Shown here piece by piece: positions 983 through 51,204 of a stretch of 60,898 bases of DNA. The DNA is taken from assembly GCA_030648955.1 (NCBI GenBank), contig JAUSHB010000004.1, forward strand, positions 1-60,898. The letters are read 5' to 3'. Made by a program: the position numbers and the translations under genes. Under the pieces are notes generated by a model. The model was not told the DNA's origin. It did not search any database and saw only the letters and a program-made list of their open reading frames with translations. The DNA comes from a bacterium (GTDB lineage: Bacteria > Patescibacteriota > Minisyncoccia > Phycocordibacterales > JAUSHB01). Within the stretch, counting starts at the first letter, position 1. Each line of letters begins with the position of its first letter.

Positions 983-1042
983 CTTCTAGCTTCCAGAGCT
1001 TCAGTAGCTTCAAAAGGTTTTAAATCAAGAAGCTTATAAGCC

Positions 1043-1101
1043 AAAGGTCCGACCCTGCCTACCGGCAGGCAGGCCTTAAGGCTCCCAAGGTCGGACCCTT
1101 G
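1043..1101. repeat. REP-like palindrome pair with nested CCTGCCTACCGGCAGGCAGG element
   Basis: aaaggtccgac-[cctgcctaccggcaggcagg, 1054-1073]-ccttaag followed by caaggtcggacccttg (1086-1101). Confidence 0.7.
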
Positions 1102-2941: not shown

Positions 2942-3766
<825 letters not shown>

Positions 3767-3806
3767 ACTATAGAGATAGGAAAAGATTTTTATTTAAAAA
3801 GTAATC

Positions 3807-4439
3807 ATGTTTTTAAAACGCAAAAAGGGGTTGTTTAAAAAAGGAGGATTTACACTCATCGAGCTTCTCGTTGTGTTTTTTATTATGGTCTCAATACTCG
3901 CAATCATTATTCCTGACTACCTATCATATTCAGATAAAAGTGATTTTGATAATTTGACACTCGATATTGCCCTAACTATACGTGAAGCGCAGAGCTATGG
4001 GATAAGCGCAAAAGAAACATTTGCGGGTTCAGGTAACTTCGACATCCCCTATGGTGTTCATTTTGATATAAATAAACCCAACGAATTTCTCTTTTTTGAA
4101 GATACCAATAAAGATTATATGTATATTGATACAGATGATACTGTTATCAGTACTTACACCGTGAAACCCGGATATGCTCTTAGTGGTTTGTGTCGCGTGA
4201 AAGATGATGGTAACTCTGATAAGTGTAAAGTCGAGTGCTTGAGCACGACATTTAGAAGACCATCTCCCAATGCGTGGATGGGTATGAGAAAAAAACAAGG
4301 AAGTAGCTGTAGTAATATTTTGGATGGTGGTGTGAGCAGGCTTCAAGATAACGTGCGCATAGAACTTACTTCTCCAAGCGGAACAACAAAGAGTATCAAC
4401 ATAACTCCTTTTGGAAGTGTTTCAGTGCCGAATAATTAA
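3807..4439 (+). CDS. Minor pilin (FimT/GspH-like)
   Basis: GG|FTLIELLVV N-terminus; PYGVHF and TKSINITPFG features. Confidence 0.85.
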   Translation: MFLKRKKGLFKKGGFTLIELLVVFFIMVSILAIIIPDYLSYSDKSDFDNLTLDIALTIREAQSYGISAKETFAGSGNFDIPYGVHFDINKPNEFLFFEDTNKDYMYIDTDDTVISTYTVKPGYALSGLCRVKDDGNSDKCKVECLSTTFRRPSPNAWMGMRKKQGSSCSNILDGGVSRLQDNVRIELTSPSGTTKSINITPFGSVSVPNN

Positions 4440-4448
4440 TGATGTATT

Positions 4449-5171
4449 TTGAAAATCGTGAAATATAACCAGAAAAAAACTTTTTTCAATAATGAACGCG
4501 AGCGGGGGTTTATCCCATACGAGAGAACGCAATTTGACACTCAATCAGTGAAAAAAAACTTCAGGAGAAAAATAACTGACTCTCGTACGGGATTTACTCT
4601 CGTTGAACTCATTGTTTCGATGTCACTGTTTATTGTTGTTGTTTTTATTACCACCTCCGCATTTCTTACCCTTGCTGACTTGAGCAAGAAAGCCAGTGCA
4701 ACCAGAATCGCCATTGATAATTTGAGCGTTGCGGTTGAAGACATGGCGCGAAAATTGAGGACGGGATACTATTATCGATGTGCGGGCGAGGATGCATACG
4801 CAGATTTGGCCATACCGCCTGTCCCGCGTGATTGTTCGTCATCCACCTCGCTTGATAATTCATCCATATCATTTCAATGGAGTGAGACAAGTGCTCTTGC
4901 TGCATATTGGTTGGTAGTGGATCCAGGTAGTGGTAGGGGGCGAATAATGTTCGGTGATGCTAGTGGTGTCGGAGGGCTCTCCTGGTCAGATTATCTGACT
5001 TCTCCCGAAATCAATATCACTAATCTTAAATTTTACGTCATAGGTGCCGAAGGAGTAGGACTGGAACAGCCCCGTGTTAATATTGTAGTGCAGGGAATTG
5101 CGGGCATGGATGTTAAAACCCAATCAAATTTCACCATCTATACATCGGTGACACAACGGTCTCCAAAATAA
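4449..5171 (+). CDS. Minor pilin (PilW-like) with elongated leader peptide
   Basis: TG|FTLVELIVSMSLF at 4590; leader contains an earlier RG-FI motif at 4506. Confidence 0.82.
   Translation: MKIVKYNQKKTFFNNERERGFIPYERTQFDTQSVKKNFRRKITDSRTGFTLVELIVSMSLFIVVVFITTSAFLTLADLSKKASATRIAIDNLSVAVEDMARKLRTGYYYRCAGEDAYADLAIPPVPRDCSSSTSLDNSSISFQWSETSALAAYWLVVDPGSGRGRIMFGDASGVGGLSWSDYLTSPEINITNLKFYVIGAEGVGLEQPRVNIVVQGIAGMDVKTQSNFTIYTSVTQRSPK
4512..4593. mobile_element. Small inverted-repeat element inside prepilin leader
   Basis: atcccatacgagag / ctctcgtacgggat (14 bp, 1 mismatch); GF codons repeated 84 nt apart. Confidence 0.65.
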
Positions 5172-5215
5172 TAGAGTGAGAGAAAATACATATATGATTT
5201 TTTTTAAATTTAAAA

Positions 5216-5773
5216 ATGAGTAAAAAGATTTACAGCAAAAAAGGATTTACTCTTGTGGAAACACTTGTTGCGATATCGATTTTGTTAATGGCTGTGGTTG
5301 CTCCACTTACCATCCTCGCTAAAAACATAAGTGCGGCATTTGATGCAAAAAACAAAGTTACTGCGCTGTATCTCGCGGAAGACGCGATTGATTTTGTAAA
5401 ATACAAAATTGCGACAAAGTTCAATGCGGGCGATCCGGGTTGGCTTGATTGGCCCCCTGCAAATCCATCGTGTCCCGGTGACGGTGATGGGGGAGGGCCA
5501 TATTGCAGAGTTGATTCTTTCGCCGACGAAATAATTTCGTGCGCTGGTTCGGATTGTGTTCTTTTATTTGATTCCACGACAGGGGTATATGGGTACGTTT
5601 CTGGTTCGGCATCCAAGTTCACAAGAACCGTCACTGTTGCAAACGCTTCGCAAGACCCTAATCCAAATACGCCGTCCTCTGATGAGGTTGTTATAACCGC
5701 AACAGTTTTGTGGCAAGATCATGGAGTGGATAAAAAAACCACTATATCAGAACATGCATTTGCGTGGAGATAG
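5216..5773 (+). CDS. Minor pilin (PilV-like)
   Basis: KG|FTLVETLVAISIL; ALYLAEDAID; KFTRTVTV. Confidence 0.85.
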   Translation: MSKKIYSKKGFTLVETLVAISILLMAVVAPLTILAKNISAAFDAKNKVTALYLAEDAIDFVKYKIATKFNAGDPGWLDWPPANPSCPGDGDGGGPYCRVDSFADEIISCAGSDCVLLFDSTTGVYGYVSGSASKFTRTVTVANASQDPNPNTPSSDEVVITATVLWQDHGVDKKTTISEHAFAWR

Positions 5774-5801
5774 TCTGAATATATGCTAAAAATACATCAA
5801 T

Positions 5802-6404
5802 ATGATCCAAGCGACACACAAAGATAATACGAAAACATCATTAAACCATGGCGGGGCGCTTATTCTCGGGCTTATGATTGCGAGCATCCTCCTTTCGGTG
5901 GGAATGGGGATTTCTAATATTGCACTGAAAGAGATAAAACTCTCATCAATTGGCAACAAATCCGGCATTGCGTTTTATATGGCTGATACAGGTATCGAGT
6001 GTGCACTGTATTGGGACTCACAATCAACAACAACCGTTGATAGGATTGATGATGGAATTGCCAATAACAGTGCGGCATATGTTTTCGCCACTTCATCTGT
6101 GTCCGGAAGTTATCCCAACCCCAATACTCACCGTATTAAATGTTTTGATGGGGTTGATATCACCGGAGGAACTGATAGTGGGAAGCCACAGTGGAGTCTT
6201 GTGTATGGTGCTGGTCCGAGTGCGACGACTACCTTCGAACTTCGCGATCCCACCAACGATACAAAACCCTGCGTAGTGGTGGCTGTCGGCAAGCGCGATA
6301 ATGGCAGTGGTGCTTTTTTTACAACCATTGATTCTCGTGGCAGGAGCTCGTGTGATTCAACTGACCTTCGCCGAGTAGAACGGGGACTTAAGGTTTTCTA
6401 CTAA
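5802..6404 (+). CDS. Minor pilin (PilX-like)
   Basis: GG|ALILGLMIASIL leader, AFYMADTGIECALYWD motif, ends ERGLKVFY. Confidence 0.8.
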   Translation: MIQATHKDNTKTSLNHGGALILGLMIASILLSVGMGISNIALKEIKLSSIGNKSGIAFYMADTGIECALYWDSQSTTTVDRIDDGIANNSAAYVFATSSVSGSYPNPNTHRIKCFDGVDITGGTDSGKPQWSLVYGAGPSATTTFELRDPTNDTKPCVVVAVGKRDNGSGAFFTTIDSRGRSSCDSTDLRRVERGLKVFY

Positions 6405-9002: not shown

Positions 9003-10454
9003 ATGAGTATTGATCTCAAAACACTCACCATAAAAAAAGCTCATGAACACCTTGCACAGGGCGATTTTTCTGCCATGGAACTTTCCGAAGCGTATCTTAA
9101 AAATATTGAAGCGCACAACAAAAATATCAATGCATATCTTGAAGTATTTAATGACATAGAAGAACAAGCCAAAGAATCACAAAAAATTATAGAATCAAAG
9201 AAAGGCGGAATATTTACGGGCATTCCCATCGCAGTGAAGGACAACATTTTAATAAAAGGAAAACGAGCAAGTTCCGCGTCAAAAATTCTTGAAGGATATA
9301 CAGCAACTTATGATGCAACGGTAATTAAAAAATTGAAAGCGGATGGCGCGGTGTTTTTAGGAAGAACGAATATGGATGAGTTTGCCATGGGGGGATCGAC
9401 CGAAAATTCTGCCTTTGGGGCAACAAAGAACCCCCTTGATATTTCTAGGGTTCCCGGCGGTTCTTCGGGCGGCTCTGCCGCCGCCGTTGCGATGGATGGC
9501 GCACTTGTAGCACTTGGTTCGGATACAGGGGGATCTATCAGACAACCCGCCTCATTTTGTGGGCTTGTCGGGCTTAAACCAACCTACGGTGCAGTTTCAA
9601 GATATGGCCTTATGGCAATGGCATCGTCGCTCGACCAAATCGGACCATTCGGAAAAACCGTTGAAGACGCGGAAATTTTGTTCAATGTGATCGGGGGGCA
9701 TGATCCGATGGACAGCACTTCTTCGCCTCGCGAGGCACGGAACAACACGGACATAACACAGAATGATCCAGGGAAAAAAATAACGATTGGAATTCCCAAA
9801 GACATTGTCGATTCACCAGGAATAGATTCGGCAGTGCTCAAAAATTTTAATGAAACAATCACAAAACTTAAGAACGTAGGATATTTGATTAAGGAAATTA
9901 CACTGCCACACATGCACTACGCGCTATCGGTGTATTACATCATCATGCCTGCGGAAGCCTCCACCAACCTCGCGCGTTTTGATGGTGTGCGCTATGGTTT
10001 ATCACAAAAAGGAGCAACACCGTTTGAGGATTATGCAAAAACCCGAGGAGAAGGGTTTGGAAGAGAAGTGCGTCGCCGAATACTTTTGGGAACCTATGTT
10101 CTCTCATCAGGATATTACGATGCATATTACAATAAAGCATGGAGTCTTCGTTCTTTAATGGGTAAGGATTTTGAACAGGCCTTTAAAGATGTCGATGTTA
10201 TTGCAACGCCAACAACTCCTACGCCTGCATTTAAGATTGGGGAGAAAAGTAATGACCCACTTGCCATGTATCTCGCGGATGTTTTCACGGTTCCCGCGAA
10301 CCTCATTGGTATTCCAGCACTATCAGTGCCTTCGGGATATGATGATCGCGATGGGAAAAAACTTCCCTTGGGACTGCAGCTCATGGCGCCTCATTTCGAA
10401 GAAGCATTACTATTCAAGATAGGGAAGGATGTTTTTGGATCTTCGGCATCATAA
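9003..10454 (+). CDS. gatA: Asp/Glu-tRNA amidotransferase subunit A
   Basis: Amidase signature GGSSGGSAAAVA, GSDTGGSIRQPA, RRRILLGTYVLSSGYYDAYY. Confidence 0.97.
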   Translation: MSIDLKTLTIKKAHEHLAQGDFSAMELSEAYLKNIEAHNKNINAYLEVFNDIEEQAKESQKIIESKKGGIFTGIPIAVKDNILIKGKRASSASKILEGYTATYDATVIKKLKADGAVFLGRTNMDEFAMGGSTENSAFGATKNPLDISRVPGGSSGGSAAAVAMDGALVALGSDTGGSIRQPASFCGLVGLKPTYGAVSRYGLMAMASSLDQIGPFGKTVEDAEILFNVIGGHDPMDSTSSPREARNNTDITQNDPGKKITIGIPKDIVDSPGIDSAVLKNFNETITKLKNVGYLIKEITLPHMHYALSVYYIIMPAEASTNLARFDGVRYGLSQKGATPFEDYAKTRGEGFGREVRRRILLGTYVLSSGYYDAYYNKAWSLRSLMGKDFEQAFKDVDVIATPTTPTPAFKIGEKSNDPLAMYLADVFTVPANLIGIPALSVPSGYDDRDGKKLPLGLQLMAPHFEEALLFKIGKDVFGSSAS

Positions 10455-11224: not shown

Positions 11225-11295
11225 AGCGGGGTGGAGGAGTGGTACCTCGCAAGGCTCATAACCTTGAGACACCGGTTCAAATCCGGTCCCCGCAA
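11225..11295 (+). tRNA. tRNA-fMet (CAT), initiator
   Basis: Cloverleaf; unpaired 1:72 (A:A), A11:U24, anticodon arm CAAGG-CTCATAA-CCTTG; CCA not encoded. Confidence 0.85.
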
Positions 11296-11304
11296 CAAGT
11301 TTAT

Positions 11305-11339
11305 AAAAAAGCCGTTCGCTTTAGGCGGGCGGCTTTTTT
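11305..11339 (+). terminator. Intrinsic terminator
   Basis: aaaaaagccg...cggctttttt after tRNA. Confidence 0.75.
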
Positions 11340-11379
11340 ATTGAAAAGTACGTTTAAAAATGATATTGTTTCGTGTATT

Positions 11380-11455
11380 GCCGGGGTAGCTCAGTGGTTA
11401 GAGCGGGCGTTTCATAAGCGCCAGGTCGGCAGTTCAAATCTGCCCTCCGGCACCA
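11380..11455 (+). tRNA. tRNA with CAT anticodon (elongator Met; Ile2 not excluded)
   Basis: GCCGGGG/CTCCGGC acceptor, TTCATAA loop, GTTCAAAT T-loop, CCA encoded. Confidence 0.85.
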
Positions 11456-11632
11456 TAAAATGATCTCTTATTAAATACATCTTAGGTGGTGGATATTAGT
11501 TGACTAATGTCTACTGTGAGCTATCAGGGGTATTTTGAAATTGTATGGTTTTATGTATAATCATGAAGTCCCAATATTAAATAACCTTTTTCTTGAGCGG
11601 AAGAAAAATGTATTTAGTAGATACATAAAAAT

Positions 11633-11704
11633 GCGGCTGTAGTTCAACGGTAGAACACTCGCCTGTCACGCGAGAGGTCGTGGGGTCAGCACCCATCAGC
11701 CGCG
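11633..11704 (+). tRNA. tRNA-Asp (GTC)
   Basis: GCGGCTG/CAGCCGC acceptor, CTCGC-CTGTCAC-GCGAG anticodon arm, G73; atypical T-loop GTCAGCA. Confidence 0.88.
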
Positions 11705-22651: not shown

Positions 22652-23565
22652 TGCGGTCTCTTTCTTCGAAGCAGGTCATCACGGCCATTCTCATTGTTGT
22701 TTTGATTGGTGGCTTGCTCGCGTTTGCTGTTTTGCGTTATAACAAAGTGCCAGCGTCGCCGGTAGCACAGCCGGTAGAGAAAGTTTCTGGTCCGATACAC
22801 AAGGTGATAGGCACGTCCGTGCAAGGGCGCGCGATCGATTCGTACACATATCTACCTGCCGGAAACTCGGCGCAGACAAGTGGAACAGGCGATATACATC
22901 TCGCGTTTGTCGGTGGCATACATGGCGGCTATGAGTGGAACAGCGTCTCTCTGGCGTATAAATTTATGGATTATCTCAAGGCAAACCAAGAGGTCATTCC
23001 CAAAAACATAACCGTTTCGGTGATTCCGTCCGCTAATCCTGACGGCGTGTATAAAGTGATAGGCAAAGAGGGTCGTTTCGCTTTTGCGGATGTGTCCAAA
23101 GAAGCGGCTACTGTTCCAGGGCGATTCAATGCCCATGATGTTGACCTCAACCGTAACTTTGACTGTAGGTGGAAATCGGAGAGTATGTGGAAAGGAAATA
23201 AAGTAAGCGCCGGAACAGAACCGTTCTCGGAGCCGGAAGCCAGGGCTGTTCGGGATTTTGTTTTAGAAAATAAGCCAGATGCTGTTATCTTCTGGCATAG
23301 TCAGGCCAATGCTGTGTACGCATCCGAGTGCAAGGACGGCATTCTTCCCAAGACACTCGACATCATGAATGCATATGCGCGCGCGGCCGGATATCCGGCA
23401 GTCAAATCATTTGACGCATACGCGATCACCGGCGATGCCGAAGGGTGGCTTGCATCCATAAACATTCCAGCAATTACTGTTGAACTTAAAACTCACGAGA
23501 CCATTGAGTGGGATAAAAACTTAGCCGGTATCAACGCGCTTTTTAAGTACTATGGACATATATGA
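22651..23565 (+). CDS. M14 zinc carboxypeptidase (MpaA-like)
   Basis: GGIHGGYEW, NPDG, DLNRNF, FWHS, ITVEL; N-terminal TM anchor. Confidence 0.85.
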   Translation: MRSLSSKQVITAILIVVLIGGLLAFAVLRYNKVPASPVAQPVEKVSGPIHKVIGTSVQGRAIDSYTYLPAGNSAQTSGTGDIHLAFVGGIHGGYEWNSVSLAYKFMDYLKANQEVIPKNITVSVIPSANPDGVYKVIGKEGRFAFADVSKEAATVPGRFNAHDVDLNRNFDCRWKSESMWKGNKVSAGTEPFSEPEARAVRDFVLENKPDAVIFWHSQANAVYASECKDGILPKTLDIMNAYARAAGYPAVKSFDAYAITGDAEGWLASINIPAITVELKTHETIEWDKNLAGINALFKYYGHI

Positions 23566-28034: not shown

Positions 28035-29384
28035 CTACACACTATCCCCTGCGACAAATCCTGTGGTCCAGCAGAGCTGAAGGGAATAGCCGCCTGATGG
28101 GCGGTTGATATTGAGTATGTCGCCTGCGAAATAAAGGTTTGGGTAGAGGCGCGAGCGCATGGTTTTGGTATCCACTTCGTCAAGCGAAACCCCACCGTCC
28201 GATACCACAGCGCGGTCATATCCCATAAGTCCTTTGATGGCGAGCGGCGCACCTTTCAAGATATGGACGAGGCGCTTACGGTCTTCTTTGGTGATGCTGT
28301 GCGCTTTAATATTTACGTCGGGAAGCCCCCAGAGCATTAAGATGGCAGGGTCGGTGCCGTGAGGGACAAGCGCGTCAAGGAAATTTTTGAGATTTTTGTT
28401 TTTATTGGCATCAATGGTTTTAAGAATACTTCGCTCAAGATCCGCAAAATCAGTATCGGGATACATATCAATTTCTGCGGTCACCTCGCCCCCCTCGAGC
28501 AATTCGCTTACCTGTTTTGCGGAGTTGAGAATAAGTGGACCGGAAAGTCCGAAGTGAGTGAAGAGAAGTTTTCCTTTTTTTGAAAATGCCTTTTTTCTTT
28601 TACCCTGAGCGTCGTCGAACGGGTTGCCGTTTTGAAAAAAAGTTATTTTCATAAATGAAAGTGATATGCCGGAAAGTTTTTTGACCCACGCGTCTTTGAC
28701 CGCAAGAGGTACAATATTTGGGCTTCCAGGGGCGACAGTATGGCCGAGTTCTTTGAGCCATTTAAACCCATCGCCCGTCGAGCCTGTTTCGGGACGGGAA
28801 TATCCGCCCGTTGTGATAATAAAATTATCTGCGGTGTAGCGGGTGGCCTGACTGCGAGCGCCGTGCCTGCGCCGTAGCGCGGCAGGCAGGTTCTCGCTCA
28901 GGCAGGCACCGCAAGAAACAGAAACAATCTTGCCGCCGAGAGCGGTGACTCGTCCGACGGCGGCACCCATCTTTACTGTCACGTGATTATCGGCGATATA
29001 TTGTTTCATAACACGCGACACGTCTGTCGCTTTTTGCGTGTTGGGAAAAGCGCGTTTACGAGCTTCAACCACGAGTGGTAATTCGTGTGATTCAAAAAAT
29101 TCAAATGTATTTTTTACACCGAAGCGTGAAAAAGGGGAGTAGAGATAGTTTTTTGCCGTAGAGTAGTGTTTTAAAAATTCATGGACGTCGTATTCGGCGT
29201 TGGTGATATTGCACCTGCCACCGCCCGTCATATCGAGTTTTTTCCCAAGCGTTTTATTTTTTTCAAGAAGAAGAACGGACTTGCCGTGCTCTCCTGCATG
29301 CCCCGCCGCCATCATACCCGCCGGACCTCCGCCGATGACAATAACATCAAAATGAGTTTTTTCCACCTTTTTCATACTGGGCAT
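28035..29384 (-). CDS. HI0933/YhiN-family NAD(P)/FAD-dependent flavoprotein
   Basis: GGGPAG, GGGRCNITN, TGSTGDG, LFTHFGLSGP, GGYSLQ; two palindromic inserts. Confidence 0.92.
   Translation of the reverse strand: MPSMKKVEKTHFDVIVIGGGPAGMMAAGHAGEHGKSVLLLEKNKTLGKKLDMTGGGRCNITNAEYDVHEFLKHYSTAKNYLYSPFSRFGVKNTFEFFESHELPLVVEARKRAFPNTQKATDVSRVMKQYIADNHVTVKMGAAVGRVTALGGKIVSVSCGACLSENLPAALRRRHGARSQATRYTADNFIITTGGYSRPETGSTGDGFKWLKELGHTVAPGSPNIVPLAVKDAWVKKLSGISLSFMKITFFQNGNPFDDAQGKRKKAFSKKGKLLFTHFGLSGPLILNSAKQVSELLEGGEVTAEIDMYPDTDFADLERSILKTIDANKNKNLKNFLDALVPHGTDPAILMLWGLPDVNIKAHSITKEDRKRLVHILKGAPLAIKGLMGYDRAVVSDGGVSLDEVDTKTMRSRLYPNLYFAGDILNINRPSGGYSLQLCWTTGFVAGDSV
28601..28624. repeat. In-frame cccNttcgacNNgctcaggg-type palindromic insert
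   Basis: Coding strand cccgttcgacgacgctcagggta, encodes PFDDAQG. Confidence 0.6.
28847..28906. repeat. Nested 30+30 bp in-frame palindromic insert
   Basis: cctgactgcgagcg-[ccgtgcctgcgccgtagcgcggcaggcagg]-ttctcgctcaggcagg. Confidence 0.85.
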
Positions 29385-29403
29385 AGTAGCATATTTACTT
29401 ATG

Positions 29404-29437
29404 AAAAAACCGCCCCAAGTTCTTCATGGGGCGGTTT
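29404..29437 (-). terminator. Intrinsic terminator
   Basis: aaaaaaccgcccca...tggggcggttt. Confidence 0.7.
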
Positions 29438-29450
29438 CAAGAAACAAAAA

Positions 29451-29861
29451 CTAATGAAGGGTGTGTTTCTCTTTTTCTGAAGTTTCATCAAAATAAATCA
29501 CACCATTTTCCGGAAAATATTCCTCGAAGACTATACTCACATAGCGATCGAGTTCTTCAAGAAATTTATCAATCATTTCCGGTGGCTGTCCTTCCGCGAC
29601 AATACTACTCAGCATATTCCGAAGAAATGAAAGCACCCTGTCTTTAAAAAGCATCCACCCAGCAATTTCTTCCCGAAGCATCATCGCGTTGTCTTCCATG
29701 ATTTTCTTTTGTTGCACAGCTTCTTCAAGAATTTGAATTCCATCGTCGTATGATGAAAACTCGAGAGACTGGCTTCCGTCGGGATAGTTGATATGTCCGT
29801 GAAGCCCACAGTTACAACGTTCGGCAAAAGCAACACGCTGAATGATAAGTTTCGTATTCAC
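29451..29861 (-). CDS. Hypothetical protein
   Basis: 136-aa ORF followed by a terminator. Confidence 0.6.
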   Translation of the reverse strand: MNTKLIIQRVAFAERCNCGLHGHINYPDGSQSLEFSSYDDGIQILEEAVQQKKIMEDNAMMLREEIAGWMLFKDRVLSFLRNMLSSIVAEGQPPEMIDKFLEELDRYVSIVFEEYFPENGVIYFDETSEKEKHTLH

Positions 29862-29963
29862 TGGTTCTATCCTCCGTGTATTCTTTATTTATATTGCTCG
29901 CAGGACTTCAAAAAGTCAATCCCACATATCATATTAATTTTTTTATATGTTAAAATATCTCTT

Positions 29964-30431
29964 ATGCAGATTAAAGAGCTTGGGCATGTTGTACTCTACG
30001 TAACCAACCTTGAAACGGTCACAAATTTTTATCGTGACGTGCTCGGATTCCGTGAAGTTGATCGCAATGATGGTTTTGCCGTTTTTTCCTCGGGACGTAC
30101 ACATCACGAGCTTCTTTTAATTCAAGTCGGCGGCACTCCGCGCCCGCCTGAGCGAGTTCGCTCGCAGTCAGGGAAAAAGGGAGTAGAGCCGGGGTTGTAT
30201 CATATCGGTTTTAAAGTTGCAGACACCGACCAAGAATTAAAAGAAATTTACCGGCATCTAAAAAAACACCACGTAACGATCATTGGCACGGGAGATCATA
30301 CCGTGACACACAGTATTTATATTCTTGATCCCGATGGGAATGAACTTGAGTTATATGCCGACGTTTCCGATGTCTGGAAAAAAGATCCGAAATCAATCAT
30401 GTCGCTTACCAAACCACTTAACCTTGATTAA
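29964..30431 (+). CDS. VOC/glyoxalase family protein
   Basis: LGHVVLYV, FYRDVLGF, LYHIGF, SIYILDPDGNELEL; start moved to ATG 29964 behind TGtTAAAAT. Confidence 0.9.
   Translation: MQIKELGHVVLYVTNLETVTNFYRDVLGFREVDRNDGFAVFSSGRTHHELLLIQVGGTPRPPERVRSQSGKKGVEPGLYHIGFKVADTDQELKEIYRHLKKHHVTIIGTGDHTVTHSIYILDPDGNELELYADVSDVWKKDPKSIMSLTKPLNLD
30143..30172. repeat. In-frame 30-bp palindromic insert
   Basis: cccgcctgagcgagttcgctcgcagtcagg; reverse complement matches the outer element at 28847-28906. Confidence 0.85.
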
Positions 30432-46122: not shown

Positions 46123-46152
46123 CCTGCCTACCGCCCCAACAGGGCAGGCAGG
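46123..46152. repeat. Intergenic 30-bp CCTGCC...GGCAGG palindrome
   Basis: cctgcctaccgccccaacagggcaggcagg. Confidence 0.78.
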
Positions 46153-49122: not shown

Positions 49123-51204
49123 CTATACTCCTAGTAGCACCGGAAGCACCATTGGTCGCTTTGCGGTTTCTTGAAAGAGGAATTTACTGACGTTATCAGT
49201 CACCTGGTCTTTAATATAGTCAAAATCAATCGGATTCATTCCAGCACTCATATCTTCGATAGTTTTTTTTGCTATAAGACGAGCATGATGCAGGAGGTCT
49301 TGAGATTCTCGAAGATATACGAATCCACGTGAAATAATATCTGGAGATTTTCTAACTTTTCCCGTACGAATATCAACAATGGCAATGATAACAAACATTC
49401 CATCCTGCGCGAGCATTTGTCTATCCCGGACGACAACCTCTTGGACGTTGCCAATAGAAAATCCTTCAACAACCATCATACCGGAAGGAGCTCGTTCTTT
49501 TCGTACCGAAAGCTTGGTTCCTTTGTCGGTTATCTCTACCACCATACCATTGTCTGGTATTACTATATTTTCTTTAGGGAATCCGTTTCTTTCTTGGATA
49601 AGCTGTGAGTGGATATGGAGCATAGTGTAATTTCCGTATCCAGGCATAAAAAACTTTGCACCGACTGTTTTGTTAATCCACACCAAATCTTCCTGCCGAG
49701 CATGTCCGCCTGAGTGAACTTCAAGCGTTTTGTAGTGAATGAGTTTCAAGTCGTGTCGATAAAGGTTATCTTTCAGTTTTTGTATACTCACTTCATTGCC
49801 GGGGATAATCGATGAGGAAAGCATCACGGTGTCACGGGCGTTGAATTTTATATATTTGTGCTGATTCGTCGCAATTCTCATGAGCGCTGCAAATTCTTCT
49901 CCTTGTGCACCTGTTGCAATAACCACAATACGATCTGGGGGATACTGGTCTATGTTTTGTGGGGCAATAATAGTATCCTCTTTTGGTTTGAGTAATCCCG
50001 CGAGCTTAGCAATTTCTATATTGGTTTTAATACTTCTTCCTTCCAAAATAATTTTTTTGTTATGGCGTTCACATATCTCAATAATTTTAACCATACGGTC
50101 AAATTGAGATGCGAATGTTCCAATAATAAGTCGTCCGGTTGTAGTTTTGACAACCTGCTCAATGTTTTTTTGAACCTCTTTTTCTGAAACTGAAAATCCT
50201 TCTACTTCAGCGTTTGTTGAATCTGCAATAAGAAGTAAGTTGTTCTCTTTTCCTATGTTTCCCCATGTTTTTTCTTCTTTTTCCGTTGCCTTGCCGTTTT
50301 CGTGGTCAAGTTTCATGTCACCCGATGCGACGATATTTCCAAATGGCGTACCAATAATGACTCCCATTGAATCGGGAATCGAATGATATACAGGAAAAAA
50401 TCTTATAGAAAGTTGATTGAACTGTATTTTACTGTCAGGGGTAACAACGTTTATGGTGAGCGGAAGGTTGTTGGGAAATTCTTCTTGACGTTTCTTAATC
50501 ATGAGTGTGGTCAAGTATTGTGCATAAATAGGCGGATTTCCTATTTTATCCATAATAAATGGAATACCACCGATGTGATCGAGATGTCCGTGGGTGATGA
50601 CTACTGCGCGAACTTTTGATTTGTGCTCTTCAAGATACTTGAAATTGGGAAGTGTGTAATCTGCTCCCAACGCGTCATCTTCTTTAACGAAATGAAATCC
50701 AACATCGAGGACGACAATATCATTGCCGCATTCGACAAGAATCATATTTCTTCCAACTTCTTCGACACCGCCCAGAGGAATAATTCGAACAGTGTCATGA
50801 GCTATTGGGGGGACACTCGAACTCTCTCTTCGTTTAGGAATCATTGCTTTTGACCTCATTCTGTCATGTCGTATATTTCCAGTCCCTTTTCCTCTGTTCC
50901 CTCTTCCTTTTCCCGCGGACGGCCCTCTTCCTTCTGGGGGTCTACTTGATGGTAAACGATTTCGTTCAAGGAGACTGGCACCATTATGAGTACCTTGTGA
51001 TCCTGTACCTGATGACGAACTTGTGTGCGGGGTTCCGCCTCCTGTCCTTGCGGGATTAGTATGTCGAACAGGAAAGCGTGAGTGTCCGCCCGCGCCCGTC
51101 TGCGGATCTCGCATGGGTGGGCGCGGGTTGTGGGGCGACTGCTGCCCTGGTCGTCTCTGACTGCTTCCCCCTTGTTGAATATTTCTTCCGTCTCTTTCAA
51201 TCAT
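49123..51204 (-). CDS. rnj: Ribonuclease J with long disordered N-terminal extension
   Basis: IPLGGVEEVGRNM, THGHLDHIGG, HSIPD, GTFAS, HSGGHA, RPMVLP. Confidence 0.95.
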   Translation of the reverse strand: MIERDGRNIQQGGSSQRRPGQQSPHNPRPPMRDPQTGAGGHSRFPVRHTNPARTGGGTPHTSSSSGTGSQGTHNGASLLERNRLPSSRPPEGRGPSAGKGRGNRGKGTGNIRHDRMRSKAMIPKRRESSSVPPIAHDTVRIIPLGGVEEVGRNMILVECGNDIVVLDVGFHFVKEDDALGADYTLPNFKYLEEHKSKVRAVVITHGHLDHIGGIPFIMDKIGNPPIYAQYLTTLMIKKRQEEFPNNLPLTINVVTPDSKIQFNQLSIRFFPVYHSIPDSMGVIIGTPFGNIVASGDMKLDHENGKATEKEEKTWGNIGKENNLLLIADSTNAEVEGFSVSEKEVQKNIEQVVKTTTGRLIIGTFASQFDRMVKIIEICERHNKKIILEGRSIKTNIEIAKLAGLLKPKEDTIIAPQNIDQYPPDRIVVIATGAQGEEFAALMRIATNQHKYIKFNARDTVMLSSSIIPGNEVSIQKLKDNLYRHDLKLIHYKTLEVHSGGHARQEDLVWINKTVGAKFFMPGYGNYTMLHIHSQLIQERNGFPKENIVIPDNGMVVEITDKGTKLSVRKERAPSGMMVVEGFSIGNVQEVVVRDRQMLAQDGMFVIIAIVDIRTGKVRKSPDIISRGFVYLRESQDLLHHARLIAKKTIEDMSAGMNPIDFDYIKDQVTDNVSKFLFQETAKRPMVLPVLLGV

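Follow-up and report, generated by a model that had tools for sequence, protein, structure and literature searches.

Two neighboring genes of an uncultured ultra-small Patescibacteria bacterium from groundwater each carry an in-frame copy of one 30-base GC-rich hairpin, here named element A. The window, i.e. the whole stretch of DNA analyzed, comprises 60,898 nt, and the two genes and their inserts are arranged in it as follows.

28035..29384, minus strand: host gene 1, a HI0933/BaiN-family NAD(P)/FAD-dependent oxidoreductase (flavoprotein) of 449 aa (ortholog alignments, AF2 model, gap against PDB 2I0Z)
28847..28906, plus strand: composite insert A[B], 60 nt, in the flavoprotein gene (sequence, ortholog gaps, X2 contig)
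28847-28860, plus strand: left arm of element A, CCTGACTGCGAGCG, in the flavoprotein insert
28861..28890, plus strand: element B, CCGTGCCTGCGCCGTAGCGCGGCAGGCAGG, a hairpin of 30 nt that interrupts A directly after its nucleotide 14 (sequence, folding)
28891-28906, plus strand: right part of element A in the flavoprotein insert, loop TT, CTCGCTCAGG and tail CAGG
29964..30431, plus strand: host gene 2, a VOC/glyoxalase-fold protein of 155 aa (ortholog alignments, AF2 model)
30143..30172, minus strand: simple 30-nt element A in the VOC gene, CCTGACTGCGAGCG AA CTCGCTCAGG CGGG

Both copies of element A conform to CCTGACTGCGAGCG-NN-CTCGCTCAGGC(A/G)GG. The flavoprotein insert reads CCTGACTGCGAGCG, CCGTGCCTGCGCCGTAGCGCGGCAGGCAGG, TT and CTCGCTCAGGCAGG on the plus strand (14+30+2+14 = 60 nt), and the reverse complement of the VOC insert reads CCTGACTGCGAGCG-AA-CTCGCTCAGGCGGG (30 nt). 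The 14-mer CCTGACTGCGAGCG is found at only two sites in the window, one in each insert; when up to two mismatches are allowed, 0.18 matches are expected in the window, and two or more matches were obtained in 2 of 100 shuffles. Taken alone, these window statistics for the 14-mer are weak. The shared repeat is nevertheless settled, because 24 specified bases are common to both copies and because it is supported by evidence from outside the window. Together with the gaps in orthologs, this bears out the sequence-only reading, in which members of one repeat family have inserted into two genes that are unrelated, and in which the loop of the flavoprotein copy holds a second, distinct element, the extra 30 nt.

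The residues which that reading had assigned to the inserts were also confirmed: the flavoprotein gains ACLSENLPAALRRRHGARSQ (equivalently CLSE...SQA) from its 60-nt insert, and the VOC protein gains PPERVRSQSG from its 30-nt insert, both in frame. Being stop-free, the inserts are predicted to be read through in frame. In the AF2 models, both inserts are placed in surface loops between β-strands, with the reading frames kept open. The flavoprotein insert, at about residues 160-179, occupies the turn that joins strand 152-158 to strand 181-190 and falls in a gap relative to PDB 2I0Z, while the VOC insert (residues 61-70) forms a low-confidence loop between strands 48-54 and 81-86. The same flavoprotein site carries a different nested family hairpin in the distant ortholog P0036; thus, one loop has been hit repeatedly.

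Hairpin template, families and taxonomic distribution

The 30-mer of element A, CCTGA-CT-GCGAG-CGNN-CTCGC-TCAGG-CAGG, belongs to a superfamily of four families (A, B/E, C and D) that share a common template: a 5-bp stem, a CT bulge, a second 5-bp stem, a 4-nt loop and an unpaired CAGG tail. For the VOC copy, the bulged hairpin is the minimum free energy structure (-8.4 kcal/mol, z -2.7). Among 13 distinct 30-mers, 94.6% of cells pair, compared with 75% in shuffles and 25-45% in slid controls, and four pairs are changed on both sides. Between A and C, pairs 5:22 and 11:18 are both swapped from A:T to T:A. The stems are either invariant or covarying, in contrast to the loop dinucleotides, which are variable (TT, TC, TA, GA, CT, GT, AA and others). 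These data show that compensatory changes between families have preserved the hairpin. Element B looks like a relative of the E family (CCTGCCTGCCGCG...GCAGGCAGG) in reverse orientation, and the B subfamily is still exactly 30 nt long despite two indels relative to E. The conserved unpaired tetranucleotide is CAGG, or CCTG on the other strand. In the window and four carrier loci, the Rfam profiles at the gathering threshold matched tRNAs only. The literature search returned no match to the exact element sequences and no published description of them.

The exact 24-base core was identified in 83 genome stretches from at least 40 metagenome-assembled genomes (MAGs) labeled as about 16 phyla; all carriers are MAGs, so that the phylum labels may include binning errors, though several of the contigs are 86-229 kb long. 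One Lentisphaeria MAG (JAGVIF01) is rich in copies. The core is also present in JGI metagenome contigs and, together with the sister family C, on some predicted viral contigs; copies lie both inside and outside genes. In-frame carriage within long ORFs was observed in other phyla, where the encoded peptides include LPERxRSQSG, ACLSE..ARSQ, GLTASxLAQAG and PDCERxRSGR, and an insert was found in CarB of a Clostridia MAG by comparison with E. coli CarB. Four of the six reading frames of the element are open; genic copies use all four and lie in either orientation with respect to the host ORF. The span of an ORF overestimates genic location, and a copy was counted as genic only where the protein is conserved on both sides of it. 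One copy (locus L032), for instance, falls within an ORF span but precedes the true start of an HsdM-like gene.

Five loci with long common flanks (L033, L044, L058, L060 and L068) were considered as a larger autonomous parent of the element and were rejected, since these flanks belong to an unrelated MITE of ~210 bp with its own terminal inverted repeats. This MITE, which holds A as a passenger in an Aminicenantes MAG, is the only larger carrier, and no larger element with the same ends as the 30-mer, such as an autonomous IS parent, was found.

Insertion sites, nesting and close relatives

The inserts are gains relative to close relatives. Orthologs without a gap at these positions would contradict the sequence-only reading; instead, every close ortholog is gapped exactly at the insert, including ones that are 91% (flavoprotein) and 90% (VOC) identical in the alignments. 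Orthologs without inserts are 86-91% identical in alignments overall (86-90% for the VOC protein), and the syntenic contig L003 carries both genes without either insert. The population evidence consists of assembled contigs. A 241-nt contig from an unrelated run of another study (X2) is identical to the window at 239 of 241 positions and skips exactly 60 nt, forming an empty-site joint 28844->28905 with a 3-nt GGC ambiguity; this near-identical strain is thinly covered, and its contig bears on the flavoprotein site and not on the other copies in the window. Another contig (X3, 151 nt, ~93% identical) contains the VOC insert with the consensus tail CAGG. The VOC copy appears to be older than the flavoprotein composite.

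All nesting breakpoints that could be placed fall in the 4-nt loop of another family member, after position 12, 14, 15 or 16. In at least 25 of 88 copies, in silico removal of A restores an intact 30-nt C element, and 15 nested copies were found in JGI metagenomes. Among non-nested sites, G precedes the insertion (position -1) in 15 of 25 cases and a pyrimidine follows it (position +1) in 24 of 25, with no bias at positions -4 to -2. Non-nested copies are thus shown to occupy G^Y steps, with no consistent target duplication; the empty sites have only 3-nt (GGC) and 1-nt ambiguities. The empty flavoprotein site, GCGGGTGG^CACCGC, is itself a small palindrome. General targeting of hairpin loops at sites outside the family was tested and rejected (mean best stem of 2.73 versus 2.56 in random sites, p = 0.21), and it is the copies nested in family hairpins that account for the lower folding energy seen at empty sites.

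The sequence-only reading had also proposed copying between the two genes and re-targeting of an element that was already in place, and neither proposal is upheld. The two window copies need not derive from one another: direct gene-to-gene copying is unnecessary because they differ in loop (TT versus AA in the same orientation), tail (CAGG versus CGGG) and reading frame, and because the core is present in so many other MAGs. Re-targeting in place would mean that A entered the flavoprotein gene first and that B later targeted the loop of the resident A. Such a stepwise origin agrees with loop nesting as a rule of the superfamily, in which several inner/outer combinations imply that loop insertion happens, and the loop of A varies among the known A[B] composites (TT, TA, TC), which could mean independent insertions of B. 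However, composites of identical architecture, with B after nucleotide 14 of A, are found in three other metagenome contigs, in other contexts: in L095 and L100 the inner 30-mer is the same as B with one loop difference and lies at the same position in A, and L099 carries a B variant with a compensatory G:C->A:T change. Moreover, the X2 strain lacks the whole 60 nt. Of the alleles with zero, one or two inserts that the sequence-only reading had suggested looking for, the empty one was thus recovered, whereas a one-insert, A-only flavoprotein of about 439 aa is absent among close homologs. Because of these three observations a single insertion is likelier: the flavoprotein gene probably acquired the preformed 60-nt A[B] recently and in a single step, and we regard the stepwise origin as a minority alternative that still deserves attention. 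Part of the nesting pattern may likewise come from composites spreading as units and not from repeated loop-targeting.

Candidate mechanism and comparison with known elements

Our main reading, to which we assign a probability of roughly 0.75, is that the two inserts represent copies of a selfish, non-coding miniature element, namely the 30-nt GC-rich bulged hairpin A of the A/B-E/C/D superfamily. We infer that a structure-specific enzyme acting in trans copies or moves the element in the form of folded single-stranded DNA. Its recognition and cleavage signals would then be the invariant parts (CCTG...CT bulge...CAGGCAGG), like the GTAG tag for REPs and RAYT (HUH/Y1) transposases. Genic copies would survive only at sites where the protein accommodates ten additional hydrophilic residues and the reading frame is free of TGA, and phages, MITEs and other mobile DNA would carry the elements from phylum to phylum as hitch-hikers; a benefit to the host would not be required. 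No mobilizing enzyme was found in the window and the carrier loci. All-against-all clustering of 1632 stop-to-stop frames (at least 90 aa) from the carrier loci gave no convincing recurrent neighbor gene; the neighbor clusters, judged by eye, are ordinary-looking (ABC ATPase, GGDEF- and HD-type signaling proteins, a Xer-like recombinase). A weak test, tblastn with approximate probes over about 780 kb (window and loci), gave no match to a Y1/RAYT/HUH transposase.

Among the alternatives, retro-type copy-and-paste through an RNA intermediate instead of single-stranded DNA seems unlikely to us. Any copy within a gene must be transcribed, the hairpin would also fold in RNA, and retrotransposition has been proposed for the analogous GC42 element, the mechanism of which is unresolved (PMC4478555), but genic copies occur in both orientations, no reverse transcriptase is found among the recurrent neighbors, and poly-A and priming signatures are absent. 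Still less probable is that the hairpins are not selfish but functional host motifs under selection, such as sites for RNA processing or stability, pausing, or binding of proteins or nucleases. Although the covarying stems and the strict conservation of the invariant parts across phyla would fit a host function, and REP-like hairpins affect mRNA stability and termination (PMC3733652), the presence of the element varies between near-identical strains and most orthologs lack it. In addition, copies decay, and they lie at arbitrary positions in unrelated proteins, using all four stop-free frames. Excision from RNA or ribosomal bypassing, as for the byp elements of Magnusiomyces, would leave the proteins unaffected, and GC-rich mobile hairpins in coding regions are reportedly bypassed in some yeast mitochondria, as Lang et al. 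are said to have described in 2014. Unlike byp elements, however, the inserts of 30 and 60 nt are predicted to be read through; all genic copies are multiples of three without stops, which would be needless if they were bypassed or excised, and no take-off/landing codon pairs are apparent, so that we consider this explanation very improbable. We attach hardly any weight to an artefact of sequencing or assembly: every carrier is a metagenome assembly, but the same insert was recovered in independent studies with independent assemblers (the X1 contig carries it at a depth of 33, and X3 has the VOC insert), and MAGs of many laboratories hold the element with different flanks and in frame in conserved genes.

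The closest known kinds of elements to the selfish hairpin of our main reading are tagged REPs, small dispersed repeats of cyanobacteria, palindromic elements of Rickettsia and GC clusters of yeast mitochondria. Tagged REPs (GTAG/CGTC) are associated with RAYT transposases, and some REP families are inserted at the center of small target palindromes (Di Nocera et al. 2013, PMC3733652). Like element A, REPs are imperfect stem-loops of 20-40 nt with a conserved unpaired tetranucleotide at one end, are dispersed and sometimes genic, and are presumed to be mobilized in trans as single-stranded DNA. The present elements differ in their CAGG/CCTG tag (not GTAG or CGTC), invariant CT bulge, unit of exactly 30 nt and the genic location of both window copies of A, and the weak search described above gave no RAYT match. 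The core is identical across about 16 labeled phyla, whereas REP families and REP/RAYT pairs are normally lineage-specific, which counts against a REP/RAYT-like model. The IS200/IS605-derived palindrome-associated elements (PATE), transposed by Y1 HUH enzymes, depend on a pair of unlike subterminal hairpins and on a defined target of 4-5 nt. They resemble element A in the lack of target duplication and the precise empty site, and their transposition is hairpin-dependent with a single-stranded DNA substrate, but here there is one 30-nt hairpin and no TnpA was found. The G^Y target is far less specific than 4-5 nt, which counts against an IS200/IS605-like model.

The small dispersed repeats (SDR) of heterocyst-forming cyanobacteria, reportedly described by Elhai et al. 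in 2008, are likewise mobile palindromic repeats of very small size; they insert into each other, at times also into genes, and have no known transposase. However, their sequences are different, they are confined to one cyanobacterial group, and identity across phyla or a 30-nt in-frame unit is unreported for them. Rickettsia palindromic elements (RPE; Ogata et al. 2000, as cited in PMC3733652) are palindromic repeats as well; they occupy protein-coding genes in frame, in a genome that is reduced, and are tolerated in surface regions. In contrast to the 30-nt unit with hosts in Patescibacteria and many other phyla, RPE-1 to RPE-10, as far as that account goes, are about 100-150 bp long and Rickettsia-specific, and do not consist of 30-nt modules set inside one another. 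The GC clusters in the mitochondrial DNA of yeast, e.g. GC42 (Wu and Hao 2015, PMC4478555), share with element A the form of GC-rich hairpins (30-50 nt in the case of GC clusters) in an AT-richer genome, with constrained stems, variable loops and units that merge or shuffle. Those clusters are organellar, mostly intergenic and have a putative AG target-site duplication, whereas the present elements are bacterial and lack a consistent duplication. The CCTG/CAGG ends amount to inverted repeats as in MITEs, but the fixed-length target-site duplication of MITEs was not observed. Finally, integron attC sites consist of R''/L''...L'/R' boxes with a GTTRRRY core, and direct reading of the 30-mer revealed no GTT/AAC boxes.

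Beyond the two inserts, we tentatively propose, with more doubt than confidence, that the CCTG...CAGGCAGG 30-mers represent an undescribed pan-bacterial class of ultra-small mobile DNA, in which each 'genome' is one bulged hairpin. A widespread enzyme acting in trans would recognize such elements in their folded single-stranded DNA form, and they would insert at G^Y, preferably in apical loops of their relatives; nested composites would travel between phyla on phages and other mobile DNA, and the 30-nt unit would permit life in essential genes of gene-dense genomes. If confirmed, they would be among the smallest mobile DNA units known and would show an unusual mix of a core identical across distant phyla, self-nesting in hairpin loops and silent survival inside protein-coding genes. 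Such hairpins would yield spurious 'lineage-specific insertions' in proteins, alignments and structure predictions of CPR/Patescibacteria, and would be a source of short hydrophilic loop insertions (e.g. LPERxRSQSG) in protein evolution. For mobile-element biology, they would imply a structure-specific mobilizing activity, with the CT bulge and CAGG tail as a concrete substrate for finding the enzyme. Their presence or absence between near-identical strains could provide fine-scale strain markers in groundwater communities.

Four other palindromes or element-like sequences were noted in the window.

1042..1101, plus strand: intergenic palindrome CAAAGGTCCGACCCTG...CAAGGTCGGACCCTTG, with a CCTGCCTACCGGCAGGCAGG hairpin of 20 nt inside it (1054-1073)
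12335..12367, plus strand: B/E-like candidate palindrome, 33 nt, CCTGCCTGCGCCG...GGCAGGCAGG, inside the ORF 12196-12942 (minus strand), where it encodes ...LPATTGTAQAG...
22852..22881, plus strand: probable decayed C-like element, CCTGCCGGAAACTCGGCGCAGACAAG, at a 10-residue gap relative to the adjacent paralog
46123..46152, plus strand: D-family copy, intergenic, 30 nt, CCTGCCTACCGCCCCAACAGGGCAGGCAGG

The D family is found as CCTGCCTACCGCCCCAGCGGGGCAGGCAGG in four loci outside the window. The probable C-like element at 22852..22881 accounts for 10 extra residues (LPAGNSAQTS) in one member of a tandem pair of paralogs that are 55% identical.

Inserts in the two host genes

The sequence-only reading had proposed that one element resides in two unrelated genes, and this observation is real. 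Element A, a 30-nt bulged hairpin, occurs as a simple copy in a VOC/glyoxalase gene and, with a second 30-nt hairpin (B) in its loop, as a 60-nt composite, A[B], in a flavoprotein gene; the sequences were read at the following positions:

28847-28906, + strand: composite insert A[B], CCTGACTGCGAGCG / CCGTGCCTGCGCCGTAGCGCGGCAGGCAGG / TT / CTCGCTCAGGCAGG
30143-30172: simple insert A, whose reverse complement reads CCTGACTGCGAGCG / AA / CTCGCTCAGGCGGG
28035-29384, - strand: HI0933/BaiN-family flavoprotein gene, 449 aa, containing the first copy
29964-30431, + strand: VOC/glyoxalase gene, 155 aa, containing the second copy

The 14-mer CCTGACTGCGAGCG has no occurrence in the window beyond these two inserts, which have a G+C content of ~70% compared to ~42% in the window. 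Homologs of the host genes, with labels including Paceibacteria, Minisyncoccota, Yonathbacteria and Kaiserbacteria, place the organism in Patescibacteria. The 61-kb window has only these two A copies, in neighboring genes and 1.24 kb from each other, a spacing that two random sites would show with a chance of roughly 4%. Two copies within 0.4-2 kb were also found at several outside loci (L012, L074, L079), and such close pairs may reflect local hopping.

Ortholog alignments (19 proteins for each gene) show gaps at both inserts. The 20 residues ACLSENLPAALRRRHGARSQ are absent in all flavoprotein orthologs except one, including the 91%-identical P0002, and PPERVRSQSG is absent in all VOC orthologs, including those that are 90% identical. 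In the DNA alignment, locus L001, the nearest ortholog of the flavoprotein gene, shows a clean 60-nt gap, and both inserts are absent in the syntenic locus L003, which has the gene order flavoprotein, 136-aa ORF, VOC. The strongest evidence of insertion is a 241-nt contig from a run of a different study (X2), which joins 28656-28844 to 28905-28956 with 2 mismatches overall, leaving out exactly 60 nt; the joint has a 3-nt ambiguity because GGC is present on either side. This contig represents the unoccupied (or precisely emptied) site in a ~99%-identical strain. In run X3, a 151-nt contig with ~93% identity reads through the VOC insert, where the tail is the consensus CAGG; therefore, we infer that the VOC insertion predates the flavoprotein insertion. 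No allele with one insert was found among close homologs.

Both insert-bearing loops are permissive. For the VOC protein, the AlphaFold2 model (mean pLDDT 82) has a single long stretch of low confidence, a loop bounded by strands 48-54 and 81-86; the insert (residues 61-70) lies there, and other orthologs have unrelated indels in this loop. The flavoprotein model is poor (mean pLDDT 66) and places residues 160-179 in a turn between strands 152-158 and 181-190; the alignment to PDB 2I0Z has a gap at this insert. Invariant residues of both protein families are all retained. A 63%-identical flavoprotein, P0036, is interrupted at the same position by another nested family hairpin, 54 nt long, with C-type (see below) outer arms CCTGCCTGTGC...GCACGCAGACAGG (residues 155-172; locus L115, GCA_030698935.1, JAUYLR010000094.1, gene 501-1859), and further along a second insert of 19 aa (GRPQANQQISWLGLPPLPA). 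Another flavoprotein indel of 10 aa, NPFDDAQGKR (window 28600-28629, - strand), is present in P0003 (81% identical) and not in the closer P0002 (91%). Its DNA, AACCCGTTCGACGACGCTCAGGGTAAAAGA, ends in GCTCAGG, which resembles a decayed A arm; the indel could be an old copy or could have been relocated by recombination.

The 30-nt template and its families

In the A unit, CCTGA CT GCGAG CGNN CTCGC TCAGG CAGG, a CT bulge divides two 5-bp stems, the 4-nt loop varies freely in its last two bases, and the tail is unpaired; the bulged hairpin is the minimum-energy fold of A DNA. The four bases that follow the core are CAGG in nearly all copies, and thus the unit is 30 nt long. In silico excision of A restores an intact second 30-mer, CCTGTCTGCGTGCGGACACGCACAGGCAGG (family C), in at least 25 of 88 copies. 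Family C is built on the template of A, except that A:T is replaced by T:A at both pair 5:22 and pair 11:18. The search for further families fixed the outer parts and left the inner stem and pair 5:22 free, so that pairing at these positions was not imposed by ascertainment. Two further families came from this search:

Family D: CCTGC CT ACCGC CCCA GCGGG GCAGG CAGG, window copy at 46123-46152
Family E: CCTGC CT GCCGC GCCC GCGGC GCAGG CAGG

Stem covariation extends across four families: among 13 distinct 30-mers, pairing is observed in 94.6% of cells compared to 75% in shuffles, four pairs are altered on both sides, and partner sliding lowers pairing to 25-45%. By its sequence, B looks like a reverse-oriented E-type hairpin whose two indels leave the length at 30 nt. 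A variant of B at locus L099 shows a compensatory change of G:C to A:T, and the T.G pair of the window's B is C-G at L095 and L100. No Rfam family matches the element.

Target sites, nesting and proposed mobilization

At sites outside family hairpins, position -1 is G in 15 of 25 and position +1 is a pyrimidine in 24 of 25 (G^Y); the loop breakpoints G^C, G^T and A^C agree with the same flank rule. No consistent target duplication was found at the L001 gap, the X2 joint or the flank-analysed sites. Wherever the breakpoint of a nested case could be placed, the outer hairpin is interrupted within its 4-nt apical loop. Element A enters C behind position 12 or 16, and a viral contig has another 30-mer in C behind position 15. 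In A, the inserts (C, B and other small palindromes) follow position 14 at 13 of 15 metagenome loci; the exceptions are a partial tandem duplication at L088 and an unclassified 26-nt insert at L091. Roughly one in two independent A sites falls within a family hairpin, which is far above the genome share of such hairpins. General targeting of hairpin loops was rejected, as sites outside family hairpins show no loop preference.

Part of the nesting excess is due to composites that spread as units, since 22 of 25 A-in-C cases have one arrangement (opposite orientation, after position 12). The A[B] composite recurs at L095 and L100 (one loop difference in B) and at L099, each time again nested in C. 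Given this recurrence and the X2 allele without any of the 60 nt, a single insertion of a preformed A[B] composite in the flavoprotein gene is likelier. The initial interpretation is partly right: insertion of one repeat family into two genes and the nesting of B in A are retained, and in-place retargeting of an existing element becomes less likely.

Outside Patescibacteria, A is also found in long ORFs, using all four stop-free frames: ...LPERxRSQSG... (as in the window's VOC gene), ...ACLSE..ARSQ... (as in its flavoprotein gene), ...GLTASxLAQAG... and ...PDCERxRSGR.... In a Clostridia MAG, ~27 extra residues that include the hairpin take the place of a short linker in carbamoyl-phosphate synthetase (residues 875-886 in the E. 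coli enzyme). The 30-nt unit preserves any frame, and the only lethal frames are the two with TGA; to account for the survivors, selection for open frames and permissive loops suffices.

These observations show a mini-element that is constrained in structure, shared horizontally, gained or lost precisely, targeted to G^Y and nested in loops. For its movement, we infer a structure-specific enzyme that acts in trans on the folded single-stranded DNA and would recognize the invariant CT bulge and the CCTG/CAGG repeats. Among documented systems, REP/RAYT comes closest; there, an HUH enzyme cuts at an unpaired GTAG tag (PMC3733652). No recurrent neighbor protein was found beside the hairpins at the carrier loci, and approximate tblastn probes, a weak test, gave no Y1 transposase match in ~780 kb of window and loci. 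Among four alternative explanations, an RNA-mediated route is unlikely, and retention of the hairpins for a function in the host is somewhat less probable still; removal of the inserts at the RNA level appears improbable, and an artefact is the most remote of the four.

The element works like tagged REPs and cyanobacterial SDRs, and is tolerated in frame as are Rickettsia RPEs or yeast mitochondrial GC clusters. However, it differs from REPs by its tag, the absence of lineage specificity and a RAYT not found with approximate probes; from Rickettsia RPEs by size and host; from GC clusters and MITEs by the absence of target-site duplication; from IS200/IS605 by the lack of a specific tetranucleotide target; and from byp elements by the lack of a frame break. 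It is a REP/SDR/RPE-like mini-palindrome, and neither its sequences nor a description of it were found in the literature searched.

Distribution, carriers and other sites in the window

Scanning one genome per species with the pattern CCTGACTGCGAGCG-N(2-32)-CTCGCTCAGG (chance expectation ~0.1) identified the A core in 83 stretches from at least 40 MAGs, many of them from groundwater, deep-mine or sediment samples, and in no isolates. One Lentisphaeria MAG carries it on more than 35 contigs. Labels of other carriers include Paceibacterota, Parcubacteria, Saccharibacteria, Nitrospirota, Planctomycetota, Chloroflexota, Atribacteria, Aminicenantes, Bacteroidota, Verrucomicrobia, Gemmatimonadota, several proteobacterial classes and Clostridia. 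Among predicted viral contigs, one carries family A and 11 carry family C. In addition, A is a passenger in a ~210-bp MITE (terminal inverted repeats CCCGCATTTCTCACAAATATT ... AATATCCGTGAGAAAAGCGGG; hairpin tail CAGT) of the Aminicenantes MAG PFL21 (L033, L044, L058, L068) and a Chrysiogenales MAG (L060). Viral contigs and this MITE are plausible vehicles between phyla.

The predicted viral contig L108 (IMGVR_UViG_3300044786_000060) has three C-type hairpins in 2.4 kb (3742-6147), one of them with a further 30-mer, CCTGTCTGCCGTGCCAACGGCACAGGTAGA, in its loop. The sequences of L058 and L060 are nearly identical and their MAGs bear different labels, suggesting binning overlap. Two MAGs from a single study with different phylum labels, Parcubacteria S40-23 (L062) and Sulfuricaulis S40-5 (L072), share homologous GC-rich ORFs in which the A hairpin is identically placed; this reflects either transfer or mis-binning, and the phylum count should be read with caution.

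The window contains other GC-rich palindromes. A large one, GTCCGCCCGCGCCCGTCTGCGG...CATGGGTGGGCGCGGG (51083-51130), belongs to a family other than A-E and lies in ORF 49123-51204 (- strand), in the low-complexity N-terminal extension of a protein that looks like RNase J (metallo-beta-lactamase type); the surrounding ~94-nt GC-rich stretch (51068-51161) folds with about -46 kcal/mol. Another GC-rich stretch (9442-9508), with the palindrome GGGCGGCTCTGCCGCCGCC, is in the coding ORF 9003-10454 (+ strand). Finally, GC-rich hairpins (e.g. 11696-11745) separate five tRNA genes at 11225-12192, where X2 contigs have the alternative joints 11705->11862 and 11706->12047, and thus the tRNA array differs between related strains.
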